Assembly (NCBI GenBank): GCA_030648255.1
Contig: JAUSHZ010000007.1
Coordinates: 24,404 to 88,403 of the forward strand
DNA length: 64,000 bases
Reading direction: 5' to 3'
Source of the DNA: a bacterium
GTDB taxonomy: Bacteria; Patescibacteriota; Minisyncoccia; Minisyncoccales; CG1-02-41-26
Shown here: one piece after another, positions 2,869 to 55,695 of the stretch
How the letters are laid out: every line of letters starts with the position of its first letter
Position numbering within the stretch: the first letter of the stretch is position 1
Notes under the pieces: generated by a model
The model's input: only the letters and a program-made list of their open reading frames with translations
The model's database searches: none
What the model was told of the DNA's origin: nothing
Position numbers and translations under genes: made by a program

Positions 2869-3085
2869 GTTAGAAGCTGTGTGAATTTTTAAATTTAATG
2901 ATTTGAAAATTCATTACAGATTCTTACACCCCGTTAAGTGCGAGCGATTAGCAAGCTACTTAACTGGGGTTTGTTTGTATTTCTATCCACACCCCAGTGA
3001 AGTAGAATTTGAGTACAAATTCACTTCACGGGGTAAATTCCGCTTGCCAATCGCGCTTCGCCTGCTGGCTCGCACTCTTGGAGCG
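2869..3085 (-). repeat. repeat copy infA|rpmJ (Y, A, R1)
   Basis: as above; tail ..ggagcgtcattta abuts infA TGA. Confidence 0.9.
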
Positions 3086-3304
3086 TCATTTAAGTCTATA
3101 AACTATTCTGCCTCTTTTATCATCAATAGAGGCCATTTCAACCAACACCTTATCGCCCAACAAAATTTTTATGCGATTAATTCTAAGCTTCCCGGCCAAA
3201 TGCGCCAAAACCTCGTTTCCATTTTCCAATTGAATTTTAAATAAAAGACTAGGCAAAGCCTCTACAACTTGGCCTCTTTCTCTTATTGTATTAATTTGTT
3301 TCAT
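3086..3304 (-). CDS. infA: translation initiation factor IF-1
   Basis: 72 aa S1-like fold, MKQINTIRERGQVVEALP... Confidence 0.9.
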   Translation of the reverse strand: MKQINTIRERGQVVEALPSLLFKIQLENGNEVLAHLAGKLRINRIKILLGDKVLVEMASIDDKRGRIVYRLK

Positions 3305-3358: not shown

Positions 3359-4738
3359 CTAGAAAACCATTTCTATCTTTATCTTATCTAGGCTTTTTGG
3401 CGCTCTTTTTATCCAAAAAGGCCAAAATTGCGTGTCCAGTCGTTCAATTTGGGGGTAGCTATTATTCAATAAAATCTCCATATCTTCTTTAGATTTTCCA
3501 GCTAAATCCGCAATTAAGGCTGTTTGGTCAATATCATTATAAAGCTTGGCATCTGTTTTTAAATTAAAAATCAAACTCCCTTTTTCCGTAATGCTGCCTT
3601 TTGGAACTACGCTTGTCGCTAAGCTTTGTTCGTATAATTTCTTTGAAGAAGATAGTTTTGTATCAATAAAGCTTTTGGCCATATCCTGCAAATCTGATCC
3701 CTTAAAAACAATTGTCTTAGCTTTTATTTTTGCATAACAATTAAATTCAGCGAGGTTGGCGCCAACAGCTTGAGAACAAGAGAACTCGGGCTCGCCATAG
3801 TCAACTGATTCTTGGTTAAAAGAAAATCCAGCGGTTGTTTGCTCCTTCAAGCCCGAAACAGCCATTTTTTTTAACTCCCTAATCAAGCTTTCTTGAGCAT
3901 TATCCATATCTCCTTGAGTTACTTGATCAACTTCTTTCTGACCCCCGCCGTCAATTTTTTCTCTTGATTCACCCCAAACATTATAGTATAAAGCTGTTCC
4001 TGTTAATCCTGGAATAGAAAACTTAGCAGGGGCTATATTATATTCCTCTCCCTCCTGATCAGCGACAACCTGAACCTCTGTAATGCTTGGGGTTAATTTT
4101 CCATTAAACAATGTGGCTTGGGGCAAAGAAATCTTATTTTTTGCCCGATAAACCTTTCCATCTTTTGATGATATAAATCTTGTTCCTGCTTTTAAGTTTA
4201 AGGGCATTGGGGGATTAATATTATTGTAAACAAATATAGCGCCCGTTGCCCCAGATTGTTCTGTTTCTTTTCCAGTTGACTTAAATGTTTCCCATTTCTC
4301 TACTTCTTTTTCAATTACATTTCCGGGAATAATCTTTTTTTCAAAATCGATTTGCGCTTGAGAAAAAGAAACTTGAATCTCGTCTTTAATTGTAATTGGC
4401 TCTAATAGCGGTTTCACGCTTATTTCTGCTTTTGCCTGCATCGTTAAATATAAAAAGGCTCCCCCTAAAAGCAAAATGGCTACACCAATAACTATGGGAA
4501 TTTTTAGAGCAAGTCTTGGTAAAGTAAAAGAAACTCGAATTTCTTTTTTTCCCTTGCCACGTCGGAGTTCCGCAGGAACGGAGGCGGGTCTTTCTTTTTT
4601 CACCTCCCCCTTCTTCATCCCCTTTCTTGTAGGTGATTTTTTTTGAGGCTTAGTTGAAGCTAAAACAATTGGAAATTGTTCCTCTGTTTCTTCTGCTTCT
4701 TCCTCATCTGGATTTGTTATATCAATAATTTGCTTCAT
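3359..4738 (-). CDS. hypothetical membrane-anchored protein (acidic/basic N-term, single TM, large extracytoplasmic domain)
   Basis: 459-aa ORF; one hydrophobic helix IPIVIGVAILLLGGAFLYL; no recognisable family. Confidence 0.55.
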   Translation of the reverse strand: MKQIIDITNPDEEEAEETEEQFPIVLASTKPQKKSPTRKGMKKGEVKKERPASVPAELRRGKGKKEIRVSFTLPRLALKIPIVIGVAILLLGGAFLYLTMQAKAEISVKPLLEPITIKDEIQVSFSQAQIDFEKKIIPGNVIEKEVEKWETFKSTGKETEQSGATGAIFVYNNINPPMPLNLKAGTRFISSKDGKVYRAKNKISLPQATLFNGKLTPSITEVQVVADQEGEEYNIAPAKFSIPGLTGTALYYNVWGESREKIDGGGQKEVDQVTQGDMDNAQESLIRELKKMAVSGLKEQTTAGFSFNQESVDYGEPEFSCSQAVGANLAEFNCYAKIKAKTIVFKGSDLQDMAKSFIDTKLSSSKKLYEQSLATSVVPKGSITEKGSLIFNLKTDAKLYNDIDQTALIADLAGKSKEDMEILLNNSYPQIERLDTQFWPFWIKRAPKSLDKIKIEMVF

Positions 4739-12841: not shown

Positions 12842-13040
12842 GTTAGTAATTCTTAATTGAACTGCGAACGATTAGTGAGCTGTGAAATTTAGAAGTACTT
12901 ACACCCTGTGGAGTAGAAATTTGCTCTGCAAATTTCTGTTTTAAATTTTTAGTAAAAAATTTAAAACTACTCCACGGGGTAAATTCCGCCTTCCACTCAA
13001 ACTTCGGCTAATCGCCTCGTTTTCGTGGGGCGTCATTTAA
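12842..13040 (-). repeat. repeat copy rplO|rpsE (X, B, R2); tail 13008-13040 is translated as rpsE C-terminus
   Basis: ..cggctaatcgcctcgttttcgtggggcgtcattta in frame with S5. Confidence 0.88.
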
Positions 13041-13526
13041 CTGTTGTAAGGCCGCTACTGTTGCCCGGGCGATATTTAATTTATTTCTTGATCTTGACAA
13101 TAACTTTGATGATATATTCCTAATTCCAGCTAAACTGCAAATAACTCTTACCTGGCCGCCAGCCACCAACCCCCTACCTTTTGCCTGAGGCCTTAACAAA
13201 ACCCTTGCTGGGCCATACTTTGCTGTAACCTCATGGGGAATTGTTTCCTCAAACATTGGAACAGAAATTAAATTCTTCTTGGCCAACCGAGTTGATTTTT
13301 CAACAGCAATTGCCACATCAGGCCCCTTGGCCACACCTAATCCAATTTTTCCCTTTTTATTGCCAACCACCACAACTGCCCTAAACCTCATTTGCTTTCC
13401 TCCCTTTGTTACTCTTGTAACTCTGGCTAAATCTAAAACCACCGAGTCGAACTCATCTTTCGGTTTTGCTGGAAATTGACCTCTTCTTTCTCTATTAAAT
13501 TTTCCTTGTTGTTGCTGTTGTTCCAT
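13008..13526 (-). CDS. rpsE: 30S ribosomal protein S5 (last ~11 aa encoded by repeat-derived sequence)
   Basis: S5 dsRBD plus C-domain; tail ..[10 protein letters not shown] read through the cgtcattta motif. Confidence 0.9.
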   Translation of the reverse strand: MEQQQQQGKFNRERRGQFPAKPKDEFDSVVLDLARVTRVTKGGKQMRFRAVVVVGNKKGKIGLGVAKGPDVAIAVEKSTRLAKKNLISVPMFEETIPHEVTAKYGPARVLLRPQAKGRGLVAGGQVRVICSLAGIRNISSKLLSRSRNKLNIARATVAALQQLNDAPRKRGD

Positions 13527-13720
13527 GTTAGTAATTCTTAATTGAACGGCGAACGATTAGTGAGCTGTGAAGTTTAGAAGTACTTACACCCTGTGGAGTA
13601 GAAATTTGCTCTGCAAATTTCTGTTTTAAATTTTTTACTAAAAATTTAAAACTACTCCACGGGGTAAATTCCGCTTGCCAATCGTGCCTCACCTGCTGGC
13701 TCGCACTCTTGGAGCGTCAT
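13527..13720 (-). repeat. repeat copy rpsE|rplR (X, B, R1)
   Basis: sequence match. Confidence 0.9.
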
Positions 13721-14065
13721 TTAAAATTGTAGCCCACCTTCTCTCGCTCCTTCAGCCAACGCTTTTATTCTACCATGATATTTAAAGCCTCCTCTATCAA
13801 AAACAACTTTTTTAATCTTTTTTTCTATTGCTAATTTAGCAATTTCCTTACCAACATTAAAAGCCTTTTCTAATTTTTTCAGTTTTTTCTCTTTTGAATC
13901 GTTTGCTGAAATAATAGTTTTGCCTTTTGTGTCGTCAATTATTTGAGCATAGATATGCTGGTTTGATTTAAATACGCAAAGCCGAGGCGCGGTTGGTGTG
14001 CCAATGACTTTTGCCCTGATTCGGCTGTGTCTTCTTGTTCTTTTTTGTTGTTTTGTCTGTTGCAT
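13721..14065 (-). CDS. rplR: 50S ribosomal protein L18
   Basis: 114 aa. Confidence 0.9.
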
Positions 14066-15798: not shown

Positions 15799-16020
15799 GT
15801 TAGTGATTCTTAATTGAACGGCGAGCGATTAGCGAGCTGTGAAATTTAGAATGACTTACACCCCGTTAAGTGCGAGCGATTAGCGAGCTACTTAACTGGG
15901 GTTTCGTTGTATTCTTACCCCACCCCAGTGAAGTAGAATTTGAGTACAAATTCACTTCACGGGGTAAGGCTCTGCTACCGCTCAACCTTCGCCTTCGGCT
16001 CGGCTTCACGGGCAGAAGCC
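15799..16020 (-). repeat. repeat copy rpsN|rplE (X, A, R2-like); tail 15975-16020 translated as rplE C-terminus
   Basis: taccgctcaaccttcgccttcggctcggcttcacgg ~ R2 consensus. Confidence 0.85.
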
Positions 16021-16961: not shown

Positions 16962-17177
16962 GTTAGAAATTGTGTGAGTTTTCAAGCTATAATCTTTTTT
17001 ATGGCTTGAAAACTCATTACAAGTTCTTACACCCTGTTAAGTGCGAGCGATGAGCGAGCTACTTAACTGGGGTTTGTTTATATTATTCTCATACCCCAGT
17101 GAAGTAGAATTTGATTACAAATTCACTTCACGGGGTTAAGCGATTGTAATGCTCGGCTATCGCCTCGCAGACAATCG
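16962..17177 (-). repeat. repeat copy rplN|rplX (Z, A, R4)
   Basis: sequence match; IR agcgattgt/acaatcgct at rplN TAG. Confidence 0.9.
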
Positions 17178-18375: not shown

Positions 18376-18566
18376 GTTAGAAGCTGTGTGAATTTTCAAA
18401 TTTAATGATTTGAAAATTCATTACAGATTCTTACACCCCGTGGAGTAGAAATTTGCTCTGCAAATTTCTGTTTTAAATTTTTAGTAAAAAATTTAAAACT
18501 ACTCCACAGGGTAAATTCCGCTTGCCAATCACGCTCGCCTGCTGGCTCGCGCTCTTGGAGCGTCAT
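18376..18566 (-). repeat. repeat copy rpsC|rplP (Y, B, R1)
   Basis: sequence match. Confidence 0.9.
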
Positions 18567-19226
18567 TTAATTAAAGCGTTCTCCCTTATACATCCAAACC
18601 TTAACGCCAATAACCCCATAAGTGCAGTGTGCCTCGCATGAGCCATATTCAACTATGGCTCTTATTGTTTGAAGCGGAAGTCGCCCATCTTTTAACCATT
18701 CTCTTCTGGAAATTTCAACTCCATTTAACCTACCTGATACCTCAACCTTCACGCCTTTTATTTCTTTTTGCTCAGCTGTTTTGCTTATTGCCATTTTCAA
18801 AACTCTTCTAAACGGCACTTGCTTTTCGATTTGGCCAGCCATCCATTGAGCTGTTAAGCTGGCTGAAAGCCATGGGTTTCTTATTTCAATAATTTCTATT
18901 TTAATGCTGTTTTTATCTGTTTTTATCTTCCCCTTTACTTTTGATATTGCTTTTTCAATTCCCATTTTCAAATCCTCAACTCCTTTGCCCCCCCTGCCGA
19001 TAATCAAAGCGGGTCTGGAAGTTTTAATAATAATTTTTAAGGCAGCGGATGTTCTCTCTATCTCTACTTCCTGAATAATACCCGCGGGTAGCTTCTTAGT
19101 GATAAACTGCCTAATTATAAAATCCTCCTCTAAGTAAACAGGAAAATTGTTCTTATAAAAGCCTCTTGAAAGCCAGTCTTTCATTTCTCTTATCTTAAAA
19201 GATTTTGGGTTGACTTTATGGCTCAT
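18567..19226 (-). CDS. rpsC: 30S ribosomal protein S3
   Basis: KH domain, 219 aa. Confidence 0.93.
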   Translation of the reverse strand: MSHKVNPKSFKIREMKDWLSRGFYKNNFPVYLEEDFIIRQFITKKLPAGIIQEVEIERTSAALKIIIKTSRPALIIGRGGKGVEDLKMGIEKAISKVKGKIKTDKNSIKIEIIEIRNPWLSASLTAQWMAGQIEKQVPFRRVLKMAISKTAEQKEIKGVKVEVSGRLNGVEISRREWLKDGRLPLQTIRAIVEYGSCEAHCTYGVIGVKVWMYKGERFN

Positions 19227-19576: not shown

Positions 19577-19776
19577 GTTAGAAATTGTGTGAGTTTTCAA
19601 GCTATATTTCCTTATGGCTTGAAAACTCATTACAAGTTCTTACACCCCGTGGAGTAGAAATTTGCTCCGCAAATTTCTGTTTTAAATTTTTAGTAAAAAA
19701 TTTAAAACTACTCCACAGGGTAAATTCCGCTTGCCAATCGCGCTTCGCCTGCTGGCTCGCGCTCTTGGAGCGTCAT
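19577..19776 (-). repeat. repeat copy rpsS|rplV (Z, B, R1)
   Basis: sequence match. Confidence 0.9.
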
Positions 19777-20103
19777 TTATTTCTTTACTGGTACTGGTGC
19801 TTTAGGTTGGGTTTGAGTTTGCACTTTTGATTCTTGCTCTCTTTGCATTTTTCCGCCATGCCTGCCAAACTTCGTGGTTGGGGAAAATTCTCCTAATTTA
19901 TGGCCAACCATATCTTCTGAAACATAAACGGGAATATGCTCTTTTCCATTATGGACTCCAAAAGTAAAGCCAACCATTTCTGGTGTAACAGAACACTCGC
20001 GAGACCATGTCTTAATAACTTTTTTCTCGCCAGCTTTCTGGTTGATGACTTTTTTTATTAATCTTTCGTCCACAAAAGGACCCTTTTTTAGTGATCGTGG
20101 CAT
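19777..20103 (-). CDS. rpsS: 30S ribosomal protein S19
   Basis: [15 protein letters not shown]. Confidence 0.93.
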
Positions 20104-22641: not shown

Positions 22642-22941
22642 GTTAGAAGCTGTGTGAATTTTTAAATTTAATGATTTAAAAATTCATTACAGATTCTTAC
22701 ACCCTGTGAAGTAAAATTTGAGTACAAATTTTAATTTTAAATTTTTTACTAAAAATTTAAAATTACTTCACGGGGTTAATAATCCGTAAGCTCAAGCTTC
22801 GCCTGCTGGCTCGCTCTCGCTAACGAATTATTAAAAACACGAGGCATTAACTCCCCGCATTTTTGTTAAAAACTCAAGGGTTAAATTCTTCCCACTTTCA
22901 AGGGTTAAACTAATTAAGTTTTACCTTGAACTCTATATTAA
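22642..22941 (-). repeat. repeat copy rpsJ|rplC (Y', A/B hybrid core, R3) plus ~110-nt unique tail with tttaacccttga direct repeat
   Basis: ccctgtgaagtaaaatttgagtacaaatt..ttactaaaaatttaaaattacttcacgggg. Confidence 0.88.
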
Positions 22942-27550: not shown

Positions 27551-27814
27551 GTTAGTAATCGTTAATGAATGAGTGGCGATTAGCCACGAGTGAATTTACG
27601 AGGACTTACACCCTGTGAAGTAAGATTTGAGGTCTCTTCCAAAAAGTGTATTCTCTTAAACTTTTAACTATTTTTCTCTCGCATCAATTGTTAATAATCG
27701 TACCCTCAAATCTTAATTTTAAATTTTTTACTAAAAATTTAAAATTACTTCACGGGGTAAATTCCGCCAACCGCTCAAACTTCGGCTCATCGCCTCGTTT
27801 TTGCTGGGCGTCAT
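27551..27814 (-). repeat. repeat copy rpsL|rpsG (W, B-type hairpin carrying ~80-nt insertion, R2)
   Basis: ccctgtgaagtaagatttgagg..[insert]..cctcaaatc..attacttcacgggg. Confidence 0.88.
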
Positions 27815-28231
27815 TTAACTTTTAACTCTTTTTGCTCCGTATTTAGATCTTCCATTTTTTCTGCCAGCCACCCCTGTGGTATCTAAATGTCCTCTAACAA
27901 TATGATATCTCACGCCGGGTAAATCTTTAACCCTTCCCCCTCTCACCAAAACCATTGAGTGCTCTTGTAGGTTGTGGCCTTCCCCGCCAATATAAGCAGA
28001 AACTTCTTTGCCATTTGATAGCTTAACCCTGGCTACTTTTCGTAAAGCCGAGTTTGGTTTTTTTGGAGTAACTGTGAAAACCTTAGTGCAAATTCCTCTC
28101 TTAAATGGAGACGCGTAGTCCTGTGGCCTGTTTTTTAAAACATTAAAACCATAAGTCAAAGCTCTCATCTTGATTGTTTTTTTCACTGGCTTTCTTGGCT
28201 TTTTAATTAATTGATGAATTGTTGGACACAT
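27815..28231 (-). CDS. rpsL: 30S ribosomal protein S12
   Basis: [11 protein letters not shown], 138 aa. Confidence 0.95.
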
Positions 28232-28366: not shown

Positions 28367-29317
28367 TTACTTACACTGCTGGGGTTTCACAGAGGTGCAG
28401 GTCAATGTTCCGTCAAGTGCTGTGCACCAAGTAATTCCTGCTTTGTCTGTATCTCCAATTCCCAAACAGCCAGTCAACGCTCCACTTCCTATCATAACTG
28501 TTGTCGAAGCAGAAGACGACACCTCCAAATTATACGCCGGCGTTGTCGTCCCAATCCCGATATTACCCTTCAATATTGTTTTCGTAATACTAGTATTTCC
28601 TAAAGTTACAGAATTGCTGCCATTGCCTATAGCACTCGCTCCTATTACTATTTCATTGGTATTCCCGTCTGCTCCAGCCATTGCGTTATAACCCTCATAA
28701 ACAGAGTTACTGGAAGTTGTATTGGCGGTAACACCATCGGCAATATAAACACCAGCCTTCGTGCCATTGGCGGTGTTTTGATAACCAGTATTATAGTAGA
28801 GAGCCTGCATACCGTTAGCGGTATTTTGATAACCAGTAGTGTTTGAGAAAAGAGCCTGCATACCGTTAGCGGTATTGTAATCGCCAGCAGTATTAGAATA
28901 AAGGGCATACACGCCATTAGCTGTATTTGTATATCCTGTAGTGTTAGAGTAGAGAGATCTATAACCAACAGCAGTATTATAACCCGCTTCATTTGTACTG
29001 GCTGTTGAACTTGCCATCCCCGCTTGATAGCCAACAAAAGTATTGTATAAGGATACATCATAATGACCTGCCTGGTAGCCAATATTAGTTTTAAAGCCAA
29101 TATTATTAAAATCAATTAGATCAGTAACCGCTATACCAAGAGAGGTTAGATATGTAGTAGTAGTTGTAGCTAATGTGCTAGTACTAAAAACATCTAGAGC
29201 TCCCCCAATAGAAACATTATTACCAATTGTGGTAACAGCTTGGGCGACTATAACTACGCAAAAAACCGTTGTTATGACGCTCACTACTACAGTAAAAATT
29301 TGCTTTTTATTATTCAT
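28367..29317 (-). CDS. membrane-anchored surface protein with GYxNTANG repeats (tail-fibre / YadA-head-like) and Cys-rich C-terminus
   Basis: N-terminal TM; ~8 tandem ~14-aa repeats NTANGxxALYSNTxGY; GNIGIGTTTPAYNLEV resembles tail-fibre neck motif. Confidence 0.55.
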   Translation of the reverse strand: MNNKKQIFTVVVSVITTVFCVVIVAQAVTTIGNNVSIGGALDVFSTSTLATTTTTYLTSLGIAVTDLIDFNNIGFKTNIGYQAGHYDVSLYNTFVGYQAGMASSTASTNEAGYNTAVGYRSLYSNTTGYTNTANGVYALYSNTAGDYNTANGMQALFSNTTGYQNTANGMQALYYNTGYQNTANGTKAGVYIADGVTANTTSSNSVYEGYNAMAGADGNTNEIVIGASAIGNGSNSVTLGNTSITKTILKGNIGIGTTTPAYNLEVSSSASTTVMIGSGALTGCLGIGDTDKAGITWCTALDGTLTCTSVKPQQCK

Positions 29318-29448
29318 AGCTTCTTCATTCTTAATTTTTTAGTTTATATCCTATACTACCTTTTACACTTAGTCAAACAAAAAACTAACACTTTTTGTTA
29401 GTTAAATTTTTACTTCACTTTACCCGCGGTCGCCGGTATTTTGAAGCA

Positions 29449-29478
29449 TTGACAAATGACTTTGAAATTTGCTATTAT
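29449..29478 (+). promoter_or_regulatory. consensus sigma70 promoter
   Basis: TTGACA-18-TATTAT. Confidence 0.65.
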
Positions 29479-29484
29479 TTAAAT

Positions 29485-29611
29485 AACCTGCTGGATGCCT
29501 TAGTGACCACCGCTCGTAATTGACGGTCTGAGCTAAGGATTACTTGGGCACAGACCCAAGTCGATCCCTGCAGAACGAAGCCCGCGGCTATTTAAGCCGT
29601 GGTTTTCGTTT
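29485..29611 (+). ncRNA. candidate small RNA (~125 nt), convergent with and overlapping 3' end of ORF 29588-30103
   Basis: stems ccttag/ctaagg, cttggg/cccaag; terminator cccgcggct-attta-agccgtgg + UUUUCGUUU. Confidence 0.45.
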
Positions 29612-30103
29612 ATCTGAAGAAAAAATGTCTAAAACATTATTGGCTTTTACTACAACATCTGGCTTTCTTTCACCTCGGAAAACAGCGATGGCCTCTTGAT
29701 GCGCTTTACTTTTCTTGCCTATTTGGCTAAAAGACACCTTTGGCGATTTAATTTTATTTTTATCAAACAAAGAAAGTAAGATGCTTCTAATTACGGCTTC
29801 GTGACCTGGGTATTCTCTATCAATAATTAAAGAATCAATTTTTTCGTTTTTAATTAGTAAAAATACTAAACCAGCAAAAATTCTAAATACAAAATTTTTG
29901 TGGGGCCTGTCTATCTCTCGCATAACAATTAAAACCTTTCGTTTTTCTTTAGCGCTAATCAAAAGAGTTCTCGCCTTACCATTAGCAAAACAAACTACCG
30001 TTAGTTTCCTAGTATCTTCAACTTTTCCTGATTGATCAATTTCTATAGGCATAAAGTTATCATAATTTATTCTAATTCTAACATAAGGATTTTTACAAAA
30101 CAA
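29588..30103 (-). CDS. hypothetical protein (171 aa)
   Basis: ORF only; no family recognised. Confidence 0.4.
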   Translation of the reverse strand: MFCKNPYVRIRINYDNFMPIEIDQSGKVEDTRKLTVVCFANGKARTLLISAKEKRKVLIVMREIDRPHKNFVFRIFAGLVFLLIKNEKIDSLIIDREYPGHEAVIRSILLSLFDKNKIKSPKVSFSQIGKKSKAHQEAIAVFRGERKPDVVVKANNVLDIFSSDKRKPRLK

Positions 30104-30340
30104 AACCGCCCTAATAAAATCAAAAGCGGAATTTTGTTTAGTATTTTATTTTTTTATTTCGCTGGGAAGGCTGGAATATTTGGTCTTATCTGGATTGACT
30201 GGGCGGTGATGCTGCCGTCATAGCTAGCGATTTTTCATCACCTTTCAAGTTGTGGAAATATCATACCATTTTTCACCCAAAATTCAAACCCTAAAATACA
30301 ACAACGTTCGGAGTTCCGAACGCTGTCTAATATGCAAAGC

Positions 30341-48215: not shown

Positions 48216-48956
48216 TTAAACACCCTTTTTATTACTAACCCACAACATCTCAAACACCTGCTTTTGCATCTGGCTAAATTCCGCATTTTCAATAACCACG
48301 GCCAAAAACTCTTTTTGCTTGCCCGATACCATTATAACTTTTTCATTATAAATAAACATTGTAGCTGAAAAAGAAAATTCTTTTGGTAAAAACCTAATTT
48401 CTCTCAAGCCCTTTTTCCCTTCGCTGACTCTTGCTTGAACTGATGGTGTCTCAAAGTCCAGCCAACGCAAAAAAACGCCTTGCTTTATTCGTTTTTGTGT
48501 CCAGCTTTCTTCGTATTGCTCGTCAATATGTTTTTTAAAATTTTCATAAGAAGCAATCCCGAGTAATTCTTTTGGCTTTTCTTTTAAGATGTTTCCATAA
48601 ACTGCTAAATAGCCTTCTTGCCCCTCAAAAAATCTCACTTTGGGCTTGTTGCCTGTTATGTTGTAAATCGATTTTAACTCTGGCAAGGACTCTTTAAACA
48701 TTTGAGCTCGCCTGTCTGCTATTTGCCCCAAAATTTCCGGGCTTTCAGCCACTAAGAATGTTTTAGCTCCTTTTTTAATTTGGCTAATAATGCCCTTTTC
48801 TTTTAAGCCATCGATGGCCGTATAAACAGTGGTGCGCCTAACCCCCGACTTTTTGCCCAATTCTTGCACTGTGGCCTGACCTAATTCCAAGGCCGCTAAA
48901 TAAACCTTTGTTTCATTGTCGCTCAAACCTAATTGTTTTAATGTTTCTATTGACAT
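48216..48956 (-). CDS. TrmB-family transcriptional regulator
   Basis: N-terminal winged HTH. Confidence 0.65.
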   Translation of the reverse strand: MSIETLKQLGLSDNETKVYLAALELGQATVQELGKKSGVRRTTVYTAIDGLKEKGIISQIKKGAKTFLVAESPEILGQIADRRAQMFKESLPELKSIYNITGNKPKVRFFEGQEGYLAVYGNILKEKPKELLGIASYENFKKHIDEQYEESWTQKRIKQGVFLRWLDFETPSVQARVSEGKKGLREIRFLPKEFSFSATMFIYNEKVIMVSGKQKEFLAVVIENAEFSQMQKQVFEMLWVSNKKGV

Positions 48957-49115
48957 ATTTTTTTATTATATTATAATTATATTAGAGCTGGCAATAATAG
49001 CTTTTAGGAGACCACGAGGGTACCCTCCGCGCATGTGGAGGTCTTAATACTTGTGGTAAATCCTAGGAGACGCCACTCTATAAAAATCATCTCTTTTGAG
49101 GTGTTTTTTATTATT

Positions 49116-49784
49116 TTATTTTTTGTTAAATTCTTTCCAATAATCTTTAAATAATTCTTGTGAAGCAATAATATTACTGTGTAAAATTTCATAAAACTTT
49201 TTTCCAAATGGTCGGTTAGTGTAATAGCGATATAATGCCCCGCAAATCCAGTCGGCAATTTGTATATTAGAATCAGTTGCAGAATCAACAGTATTTACAT
49301 AAACGCTCGCTTTTTTAGATAGTTGCAAGATAATATGCAAACGCAAGTTTTCTTTAAATTCTTTTTGTGAAACTTTTTTCAAACTTCTATGGTCTAAATT
49401 AAGAATAATTTGTGGCTCTGCGTTAGGAAAAATAATATCAAGAGTTTTAGCTATTATCTCAGTATAAAGACGGCCCGACTCAACAGCGCTTTTTCTTCTA
49501 AATTCCAAAGGAATATTTTCTGATTTTAGAAAAGAATAAAAAATACGGATATTTTGTTGAGCTAAATATAATAGTGTTTCAGCGCGCAATTTATCAGTTA
49601 AACGAGCATCGGTGAACTTAACTTCCCTGCGGAATTTAAGTTTTTTGTTAGCAAATTTTGCGTCTTGCCACTTGCGAAACGCTTTGGCAGTGGTTCGTTG
49701 ATTGCCAATAATAAACCCGCCGACTATGAAAAGTTTTTCTTTATCACCTTGAAAATTACCAGATTCATCAATAAAAATATACAT
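49116..49784 (-). CDS. DUF3800 family protein
   Basis: MYIFIDESGNF hallmark. Confidence 0.65.
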   Translation of the reverse strand: MYIFIDESGNFQGDKEKLFIVGGFIIGNQRTTAKAFRKWQDAKFANKKLKFRREVKFTDARLTDKLRAETLLYLAQQNIRIFYSFLKSENIPLEFRRKSAVESGRLYTEIIAKTLDIIFPNAEPQIILNLDHRSLKKVSQKEFKENLRLHIILQLSKKASVYVNTVDSATDSNIQIADWICGALYRYYTNRPFGKKFYEILHSNIIASQELFKDYWKEFNKK

Positions 49785-50040
49785 GCTATTAAGTAAATGT
49801 TGTCAGTTATGTCGACAAAACTAATCCACAAACTCATTATAATACTAATTAAAAACCTGTCAACCCCTTTTATTAACAGCATACAGCTAATATATCCAAA
49901 ACCCATATTTTGCCAAAAAACTTGTCAAACCCCTTGACAAGTTTTAAGGTATATGCTATCTAAAAATAAAAGACGAGCGCGTTCCAACTCAACTGCCCCA
50001 CCCAAGACATACAAGGAGATAGAAAATTAATAATAACAAA

Positions 50041-54922: not shown

Positions 54923-55455
54923 ACAAAACAAAAATTCTTTCTCTCATTTATTTCACCGCCCTGCTGGGTGTGTCTATAGTTGCGCCATTGTTTCACTTTC
55001 AGCCAATTACTGGCCCCATTGTTAACGCTTGCTTATTTATTGCCACAGCTATTTTGGGCGTTCAGGCTGGCATTATGCTTGGGCTTTTGCCAAGCTTGGT
55101 TGCTTTATCAGTTGGCACCTTGCCAGCTCCCCTAGCCCCAATGGTGCCTTTCATTATGGCCAGCAACGCTATCATGGTTGTTGTTTTCGCCGAAGCCACC
55201 GAGTGGCTTCGGAGGACGAAGCCACTCGGTGGCTTCCAAAATTCTTTTCGTTTTTTTACAGGCGTTATTTTGGCAAGTGTTTTAAAATTCTTATTTTTAT
55301 TCTCCACCAGCTATATTGTTATTCACTTAATCGCTCAAAAACCAATTGCCCAAAAAGCATCTGTAATGATGTCCTGGCCCCAGCTCACCACCGCCCTCCT
55401 GGGCGGCCTCCTCGCTTTTGCTGTTCTAAAAGTTTTCCACAATCAAAAATCTTGA
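54898..55455 (+). CDS. polytopic membrane protein (ECF-transporter S-component-like)
   Basis: 5-6 TM helices. Confidence 0.45.
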   Translation: MPYKILTLNKTKILSLIYFTALLGVSIVAPLFHFQPITGPIVNACLFIATAILGVQAGIMLGLLPSLVALSVGTLPAPLAPMVPFIMASNAIMVVVFAEATEWLRRTKPLGGFQNSFRFFTGVILASVLKFLFLFSTSYIVIHLIAQKPIAQKASVMMSWPQLTTALLGGLLAFAVLKVFHNQKS

Positions 55456-55480
55456 CATTTTCTTTTAATTTGGTATTATA
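55452..55480 (+). promoter_or_regulatory. sigma70 promoter
   Basis: TTGACA-17-ATTATA. Confidence 0.6.
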
Positions 55481-55486
55481 CGGGCA

Positions 55487-55695
55487 ATAGGCAATGCTCG
55501 CATTACGAGCTATAGTTGCGTGTCAACAAAAGGGACCTTTTGCAAAAACGGTCTTTTTTGTTATAATAAAACCGTGGATCTGGGCCCGTAGTGCATAAAG
55601 TAGCATATTGCCTTTGACACGCAATAAAGGGAGTGCAAGTCTCCCCGGGTCCACACCAAAAATTCTTTCTTTACAGAAAGAATTTTTGATTATTT
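55487..55695 (+). ncRNA. candidate small-RNA locus with second internal promoter (TTGCAA-16-TATAAT at 55540-55567) and 12-bp AU-rich terminator
   Basis: long-range IR ttgcgtgtcaa/ttgacacgcaa; terminator aaaattctttct-ttac-agaaagaatttt + U-rich. Confidence 0.45.

Follow-up and report, generated by a model that had tools for sequence, protein, structure and literature searches.

A promoter at position 29449 that points at the 3′ end of a gene for a protein of no recognized family raises two questions: does it drive a small RNA gene in its own right, and what would such an RNA do beside that protein? We addressed both in the 64,000-nt stretch of patescibacterial DNA analysed here (the window) and in homologous loci from other genomes.

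A small RNA gene and its convergent neighbour

The elements of the locus, in window coordinates, are as follows:

29449–29478, plus strand: sigma-70-type promoter of the small RNA, 11/12 consensus score
29486–29575, plus strand: conserved RNA core ('type A'), a three-way junction, scored by covariance model R1 at 81.1 bits (E = 2.7e-20)
29488–29496 / 29564–29573, plus strand: helix P1, from the fold
29498–29504 / 29532–29538, plus strand: helix P2, from the fold, enclosing an inner hairpin at 29509–29527
29542–29561, plus strand: helix P3, from the fold
29574–29611, plus strand: intrinsic terminator hairpin and U-tract, the hairpin (29574–29610) being separate from the core
29588–30052, minus strand: gene for the 154-aa partner protein, from the start used by its homologues; the mechanical ORF reaches a TTG at 30103
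30069–30098, minus strand: candidate promoter of the protein gene (TTGTAA, 18-nt spacer, TAGAAT), weak at only 9/12
29410–30220, no strand assigned: the two-gene module, delimited by homology with locus L001 (blastn block, 86% identity)

The promoter on which the first-pass annotation had built its reading stands: TTGACA (29449–29454) and TATTAT (29473–29478) are separated by an 18-nt spacer, with TG before the −10 element. It is not the best promoter match in the window, as had been claimed, since two sites score 12/12 (48950–48977 on the plus strand and 49863–49836 on the minus strand); five other sites share its score of 11/12. The sequence downstream agrees with the approximately 125 nt, three stems and terminator described at first: P1, P2 and P3 are followed by the terminator hairpin, and the 132 nt at 29484–29615 fold with an energy of −56 kcal/mol (z = −6.5 relative to dinucleotide shuffles, 0/200 of which were as stable). 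The core stem of the terminator occupies 29582–29602 and is followed by TTTTCGTTT. Because the stop codon of the convergent ORF (29588–30103, minus strand) lies at 29588–29590, the terminator covers the stop and approximately seven codons of that ORF, an overlap that had been anticipated, and no conserved plus-strand ORF was found downstream of the promoter, again as reported. The convergent 171-aa ORF does contain a gene, but its start had to be revised: homologues are 146–156 aa long and begin at M18 of the ORF, so that M18 is the most likely start (29588–30052, 154 aa). With its own promoter, its own intrinsic terminator and a strand backed by G–U pairs, the approximately 125-nt RNA, made up of core and terminator, is confirmed at the sequence level as a promoter-driven, independent small RNA gene on the plus strand.

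Conservation of the RNA and its linkage to the protein gene

Using homology to the protein, we retrieved 80 genome loci. Searches with the window RNA by blastn and nhmmer matched 14 of them, in every case on the strand opposite the protein gene and immediately after its stop codon, with a TTGACA...TATAAT-like promoter of its own approximately 6–12 nt ahead of the structure at each locus; a near-consensus promoter is found at the equivalent position in nearly all homologous loci. A separate terminator hairpin is present only in the window and in L001, and in most relatives a U-run directly follows the 3′ strand of P1. In a curated alignment (A3; 15 sequences, 26 consensus pairs), compensatory double changes occur at 19 of the 26 pairs and 93.6% of cells are paired, values reached by 0/500 shuffles; sliding the 3′ partners as a control lowered pairing to 26–46%. 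G–U pairs outnumber A–C pairs by 38 to 5, an excess that indicates a functional RNA on the promoter strand. Conserved in the type-A core are the unpaired UGACC / CUGAG segments and a CGUAAU hairpin loop, and variation falls on the paired, covarying positions and on a short AU-rich 5′ leader.

The covariance model R1, built for this RNA, found 17 of the 80 fetched loci, all convergent to the protein. The reverse approach, an RNA-first pattern scan of metagenomes, gave mostly chance matches and three true ones (L099, L103 and L118), and in all three the protein gene is convergent and abutting; the RNA-pattern scan of viral contigs returned chance matches only and no true copy. Type-A RNA and protein gene thus occur together in 21/21 loci (the window and 20 others, three of which were found RNA-first), which bears out the functional tie to the convergent ORF suspected at first. 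The closest relative, L001, from a Candidatus Paceibacterota MAG, has an RNA core 96.7% identical to that of the window and a terminator region 94.4% identical with differences confined to the loop; over the CDS, identity is 88.2%, with 79.2% for third codon positions alone, and the partner protein is 90% identical. On these comparative grounds, the RNA is genuine, structured and strongly conserved across loci; by the same measure, it evolves under purifying selection and is co-inherited with the protein, to which it is convergent at every type-A locus.

Comparison with L001 also delimits the module: homology stops at an unrelated flank at one end and, at the other, at a 316-aa ORF that L001 lacks. 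The rpsL-rpsG-fusA genes on one side are syntenic between the two loci, and it is on this side that the window has the inserted ORF. The 316-aa ORF itself (28367–29317, minus strand) separates the RNA promoter from rpsL in the window and has no counterpart in L001, which is syntenic in other respects. Its product gave no Pfam match and combines a hydrophobic N-terminal segment with repeats rich in Asn, Thr and Gly. No conserved third gene was found near the module in homologous loci, and a repeat search around 29410–30220 found neither terminal inverted repeats nor target-site duplications. The distribution of the module is patchy and its contexts are variable, with two or three modules in several MAGs or contigs. 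In some loci a second RNA gene or a whole second module lies within 1–3 kb (L064, ~3440–3650; L057, 4610–4672; L059, 2583–2645; L058, 874–936; L077, 3523–3589); in L064 two RNA genes stand in tandem, each preceded by a promoter-like site, and L057 has one type-A and one type-B RNA.

Type B belongs to the loci with more divergent proteins, which carry other small RNAs at this position, with near-consensus promoters and U-runs. A second covariance model, R2, places type-B RNAs at 51 sites spread over 47 loci. Every one of these sites is on the strand convergent to the protein gene, and almost all lie immediately behind its stop codon. Compensatory changes affect 18 of 19 pairs, and 89% of cells are paired, in an alignment that was fitted to the model. 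Together, R1 and R2 account for 63/80 loci, and most of the remainder appear by eye to carry further RNA types. There was no cross-detection of type-B RNAs by R1 or of the window RNA by R2. Inspection by eye suggests a layout common to the types (a helix, an internal loop GACC / CU(U/G)A(A)G and a hairpin loop often containing GUAA), which we treat as a lead and not as established homology. As a supporting feature, the RNA–protein pairs co-diversify across loci. Five loci on contigs binned as archaeal (L061, L069, L070, L071 and L080; Woesearchaeota and similar lineages) have, by eye, a different convergent structured RNA of the pattern GGGUGC...GCUGAYUGUG...GCUCGCUGUAGGC...CCCC, with an AT-rich TATA-like element, also recognized by eye, in place of the bacterial promoter.

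Known families and the comparison with DUF3800

A whole-window cmscan of Rfam 15 at gathering thresholds gave no match at 29449–29611; elsewhere in the window it reported only one tRNA and one DUF3800-V RNA. A permissive scan of 29300–29750 returned chance-level matches only (≤18 bits), of which the best looking was DUF3800-V (RF02964) at 29467–29561, with 16.4 bits and E = 2.3 against a gathering threshold of 37.4 bits. Because this match was reproduced neither in the type-A locus L013 nor in the type-B locus L026, we treated it as chance. Rfam searches of L013, L026 and 20 further loci gave no family match, so the statement in the first-pass annotation that the RNA matches no recognized family survives the cmscan that it had proposed as a check. 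Literature searches found no paper describing the RNA–protein module. Both the RNA and its partner protein are absent from the Rfam, Pfam, NCBIfam and PADLOC libraries searched.

For the protein, a word-indexed search returned 116 homologues, and an exhaustive profile search returned 1179 representatives of 50%-identity clusters (E <= 1e-3); the homologues of approximately 150 aa come from Patescibacteria (CPR) and DPANN MAGs. Twelve residues are invariant in the protein alignment (A1): D6, Q7, S8, E12, T14, F59, D78, E80, Y81, S115, A117 and H118. The partner protein matched nothing in Pfam, NCBIfam, PADLOC or the PDB sequences, a Pfam search of 40 family members at E = 10 gave nothing, weak matches included, and a search of the longer homologues revealed no added Pfam domain. 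An AlphaFold model (pLDDT 90.7) has the order β1-β2-β3-α1-α2-β4-α3-β5-α4. Foldseek searches of PDB and BFVD place RNase H domains at the top, every match being weak (TM 0.41–0.46, E ~3e-3), and one DUF3800 phage protein appears at rank 13. On the secondary structure, D6 ends β1, the mostly acidic position 36 lies on α1, D78 and E80 follow β4, and H118 lies on α4. In the model, D6, position 36, D78/E80 and H118 would form the canonical RNase-H-like arrangement and a plausible metal-binding catalytic set; the fold is thus predicted to be RNase-H-like and the protein to be a putative nuclease.

An RNase-H-like protein beside a structured RNA calls to mind the DUF3800 family, described as RNase-H-like and as a type VII retron effector (PMC10910872; PMC7736814) and characterized by DE and QxxD motifs (PMC7736814). 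Eleven dissimilar RNA motifs, several with terminators, have been associated with DUF3800 genes (PMC5737381); the named motifs comprise DUF3800-I to -XI, drum and skipping-rope. The window itself holds such a module at 48950–49863:

48950–48977, plus strand: promoter of the DUF3800-V module, 12/12
48983–49080, plus strand: DUF3800-V RNA, Rfam 41.9 bits
49088–49103, plus strand: terminator following the DUF3800-V RNA
49116–49784, minus strand: convergent DUF3800 gene, with its own 12/12 promoter at 49863–49836

The order of consensus promoter, RNA, terminator and convergent gene is the same in the two modules. Like DUF3800 pairs in general, the pair studied here consists of a small structured RNA, often self-terminated, locked to a protein with an RNase-H-like fold (predicted in our case), with many dissimilar RNA structures per protein family and no third conserved gene. 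The differences lie in the RNA, which matches no DUF3800-x covariance model; in the size of the protein, approximately 150 aa compared with approximately 220 aa for the DUF3800 protein of the window; and in geometry, the RNA studied here being strictly convergent and abutting, whereas DUF3800-I, drum and skipping-rope RNAs are reported to precede or follow their associated genes, in either orientation (Weinberg et al. 2017, PMC5737381).

Could the pair nevertheless be a divergent DUF3800-V RNA (RF02964) with a degenerate DUF3800 protein? The weak cmscan match at 29467–29561, the true DUF3800-V module of identical gene layout in the same window, the DUF3800 phage protein among the structural matches and the likeness of the N-terminal IEIDQSGK to IFIDESGN of DUF3800 would speak for it. 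Yet the RNA match scores far below the gathering threshold and is missing from L013 and L026, and the type-B model R2 gives no match to the DUF3800-V RNA. At the protein level, PF12686 was not matched by the partner protein or 39 homologues even at E = 10, and hhalign of A1 against a 29-sequence DUF3800 alignment (A5) gave a non-significant probability of 0.9%, with approximately 12 N-terminal residues alone aligning convincingly; BLASTP and hhalign against a single DUF3800 sequence likewise limited the resemblance to approximately 12 N-terminal residues. In place of the DE and QxxD motifs, present as DESG and QIAD in the true DUF3800 protein of the window, the family studied here has DQ (D6-Q7-S8) and S115-x-A117-H118. 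Among the hallmarks of DUF3800, the RNase-H-like fold was the only one found, and weakly (TM 0.41–0.46); every sequence hallmark was missing. We consider the DUF3800-V reading very improbable, and on sequence evidence membership of the pair in DUF3800 is largely refuted. Since each of the sequence comparisons fails, the module would work like a DUF3800 RNA–protein pair and yet stand outside that family, and the best reading, by analogy, is a counterpart of the DUF3800-associated RNAs built around a distinct protein family.

Possible roles of the RNA–protein pair

The role that we favour, with slightly more than even confidence, is that of a ribonucleoprotein partner of the cognate RNase-H-fold protein. 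A strong constitutive promoter would yield an approximately 90-nt structured RNA plus terminator, and this RNA would be the dedicated binding partner of the 154-aa protein, the two forming a ribonucleoprotein in which the protein would contact the invariant unpaired UGACC / CUGAG nucleotides and the CGUAAU loop, with the covarying helices as scaffold. In the version that we prefer, the abundant RNA would restrain the putative nuclease or set its specificity, in a manner resembling type III toxin–antitoxin or defence systems. We infer physical binding between RNA and protein, and an inhibitory or regulatory direction. A covarying scaffold with a few invariant unpaired nucleotides points to an RNA that is recognized by a protein or adopts a tertiary structure, and not to a simple antisense RNA; this signature, together with the variable overlap, the lack of pairing with the mRNA start and the lack of a guide or transposon ends described below, favours a ribonucleoprotein module. 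Given the small size of the module, its multiple copies, its variable contexts, its spread over bacteria and archaea and the co-diversification of its parts, a toxin–antitoxin-like or defence-like role is most likely.

Type III toxin–antitoxin systems (ToxIN, CptIN, TenpIN) are similar in that a putative nuclease and a cognate structured RNA make up a small two-component module, present in several copies per genome and in variable contexts, whose RNA and protein co-diversify. They differ in that their antitoxin consists of tandem repeats, processed by the toxin and encoded upstream of it on the same strand, whereas the RNA studied here comes from a single convergent gene with its own promoter; it is single, downstream and convergent in the window and likewise in the other loci, except for the two tandem RNA genes of L064. 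ToxN, moreover, has a Kid/MazF-like fold, unlike the RNase-H-like one. Besides this mismatch with type III antitoxins, several points weigh against the ribonucleoprotein reading: the RNase H fold match is weak (TM 0.41–0.46, E ~3e-3), the sequence link to DUF3800 is missing (hhalign 0.9%; no weak Pfam match among 40 members), and the strictly convergent, abutting geometry would be superfluous if the RNA acted through protein binding alone, which hints at an extra transcriptional or antisense component.

That geometry speaks for the cis-antisense role proposed in the first-pass annotation. Expression of the protein would then be lowered either by pairing of the RNA with its mRNA, at the 3′ end or in the 3′ UTR, or by transcriptional interference from the strong RNA promoter. 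Without exception, the R1 matches (17 among the fetched loci) and the R2 matches (51) lie opposite the protein strand, and the RNA 3′ end falls at the stop codon or at most 42 nt inside the ORF. No protein-strand intrinsic terminator was found between the stop codon and the RNA 5′ end in 19 type-A loci, so the mRNA could read antisense through the whole RNA gene; combined with the invariant convergence, this leaves room for an added layer of antisense control or transcription interference. Type I pairs with 3′ overlap exist, for example txpA/RatA, and pairs such as txpA/RatA and bsrG/SR4 share with our module a convergent RNA, overlapping 3′ ends and a strong RNA promoter. Their toxins, however, are small hydrophobic peptides, whereas the partner protein is predicted to be a soluble α/β protein of 154 aa, and here the overlap with the CDS is short and not conserved, ranging from none, as in many loci, to 42 nt. 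The selected structured core and unpaired loops fall outside the overlap in most loci, and neither a covarying three-way junction of tertiary type nor specific unpaired nucleotides would be necessary for perfect cis-complementarity. Nor did complementarity between the RNA and the 5′ or translation-start region of the protein mRNA give a consistent signal (z-scores around 0). The tie to the convergent ORF therefore stands, but with so variable an overlap cis-antisense pairing is not the best-fitting mechanism, and we judge it unlikely.

A guide-like or element-borne RNA comparable to the omega RNAs of TnpB and IscB or the bridge RNAs of IS110 is an improbable alternative that rests on a similar gene pairing, a structured non-coding RNA whose gene directly adjoins that of a nuclease from the RNase-H-like superfamily; the presence of the module in multiple copies, in varied contexts and in both bacterial and archaeal MAGs suggests horizontal spread. 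The protein, however, is two to three times smaller than those of the omega and bridge RNA systems, a single domain of only approximately 150 aa without extra domains; the variable RNA positions are mostly paired and covarying and offer no variable single-stranded guide-like segment; and the module lacks the terminal inverted repeats and target-site duplications that would mark transposon ends, while the RNA-pattern scan gave no true copy on viral contigs. The other suggestion of the first-pass annotation, a housekeeping small RNA, and its variant, a terminator or 3′ UTR element of a neighbouring gene, could appeal to the strong promoter beside the rpsL-rpsG-fusA operon, but we find them hardly credible. 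Rfam gives no match to SRP, 6S, tmRNA, RNase P or any further family, and the RNA accompanies a single, non-housekeeping family of proteins throughout, across unrelated contexts and in multiple copies; the G–U and A–C counts, the promoter and the U-run place it opposite the ORF strand, at odds with a 3′ UTR. A module that is patchy, context-variable and present in several copies per genome excludes a housekeeping RNA, and that suggestion is withdrawn.

Returning to the ribonucleoprotein reading, its widest form is a tentative one, which we hold possible but not probable: a new minimal class in CPR and DPANN genomes, in which a dedicated structured RNA would control or program an RNase-H-fold nuclease of approximately 150 aa, several unrelated RNA folds having been recruited to the one protein scaffold. 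DUF3800-associated RNAs have been a puzzle since 2017, with many unrelated elaborate structures accompanying one RNase-H-like protein. The same design recurs here around a second protein family, one whose sequences show no detectable kinship with DUF3800; it comprises approximately 1,200 clusters at 50% identity and carries at least two RNA families defined by covariance models as well as further types recognized by eye. If true, this class would be a sister phenomenon of the DUF3800 RNAs, and it might represent a new mechanism of RNA-antitoxin action or of immunity, or else an RNA-dependent nuclease of a new kind. With a module of approximately 0.8 kb and a protein of approximately 150 aa, it offers an attractive minimal system for RNA–nuclease pairs, and it enlarges the 'dark matter' of CPR and DPANN genomes by an RNA gene and a protein family that had escaped annotation.

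Elsewhere in the window, a tRNA of 72–73 nt at 55582–55654 with the anticodon UGA (tRNA-Ser by ARAGORN) scores 43 bits with Rfam in a local scan and was missed by the whole-window gathering scan. Upstream of it lie an 11/12 promoter (55452–55479) and a leader of approximately 80 nt ending in a hairpin and U-run near 55531–55560, and this arrangement (55452–55654) may represent an attenuator-like leader or else a small RNA in its own right. The window also contains at least 15 copies of a modular intergenic repeat family with three kinds of module, namely a hairpin (GCTACTTAACTGGGG...CCCCAGTGAAGTAG), AT-rich palindromes and a CACGGGGTAAATTCCGC... module. Examples are:

1364–1444, 2613–2755, 2955–3092, 12939–13045, 13623–13723 and 15887–16002: repeat copies
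17058–17139, 18470–18572, 19679–19782, 22725–22804 and 27714–27830: further repeat copies

The related MAG locus L001 has copies of these intergenic repeats too, and the rpsL-rpsG spacer contains one.
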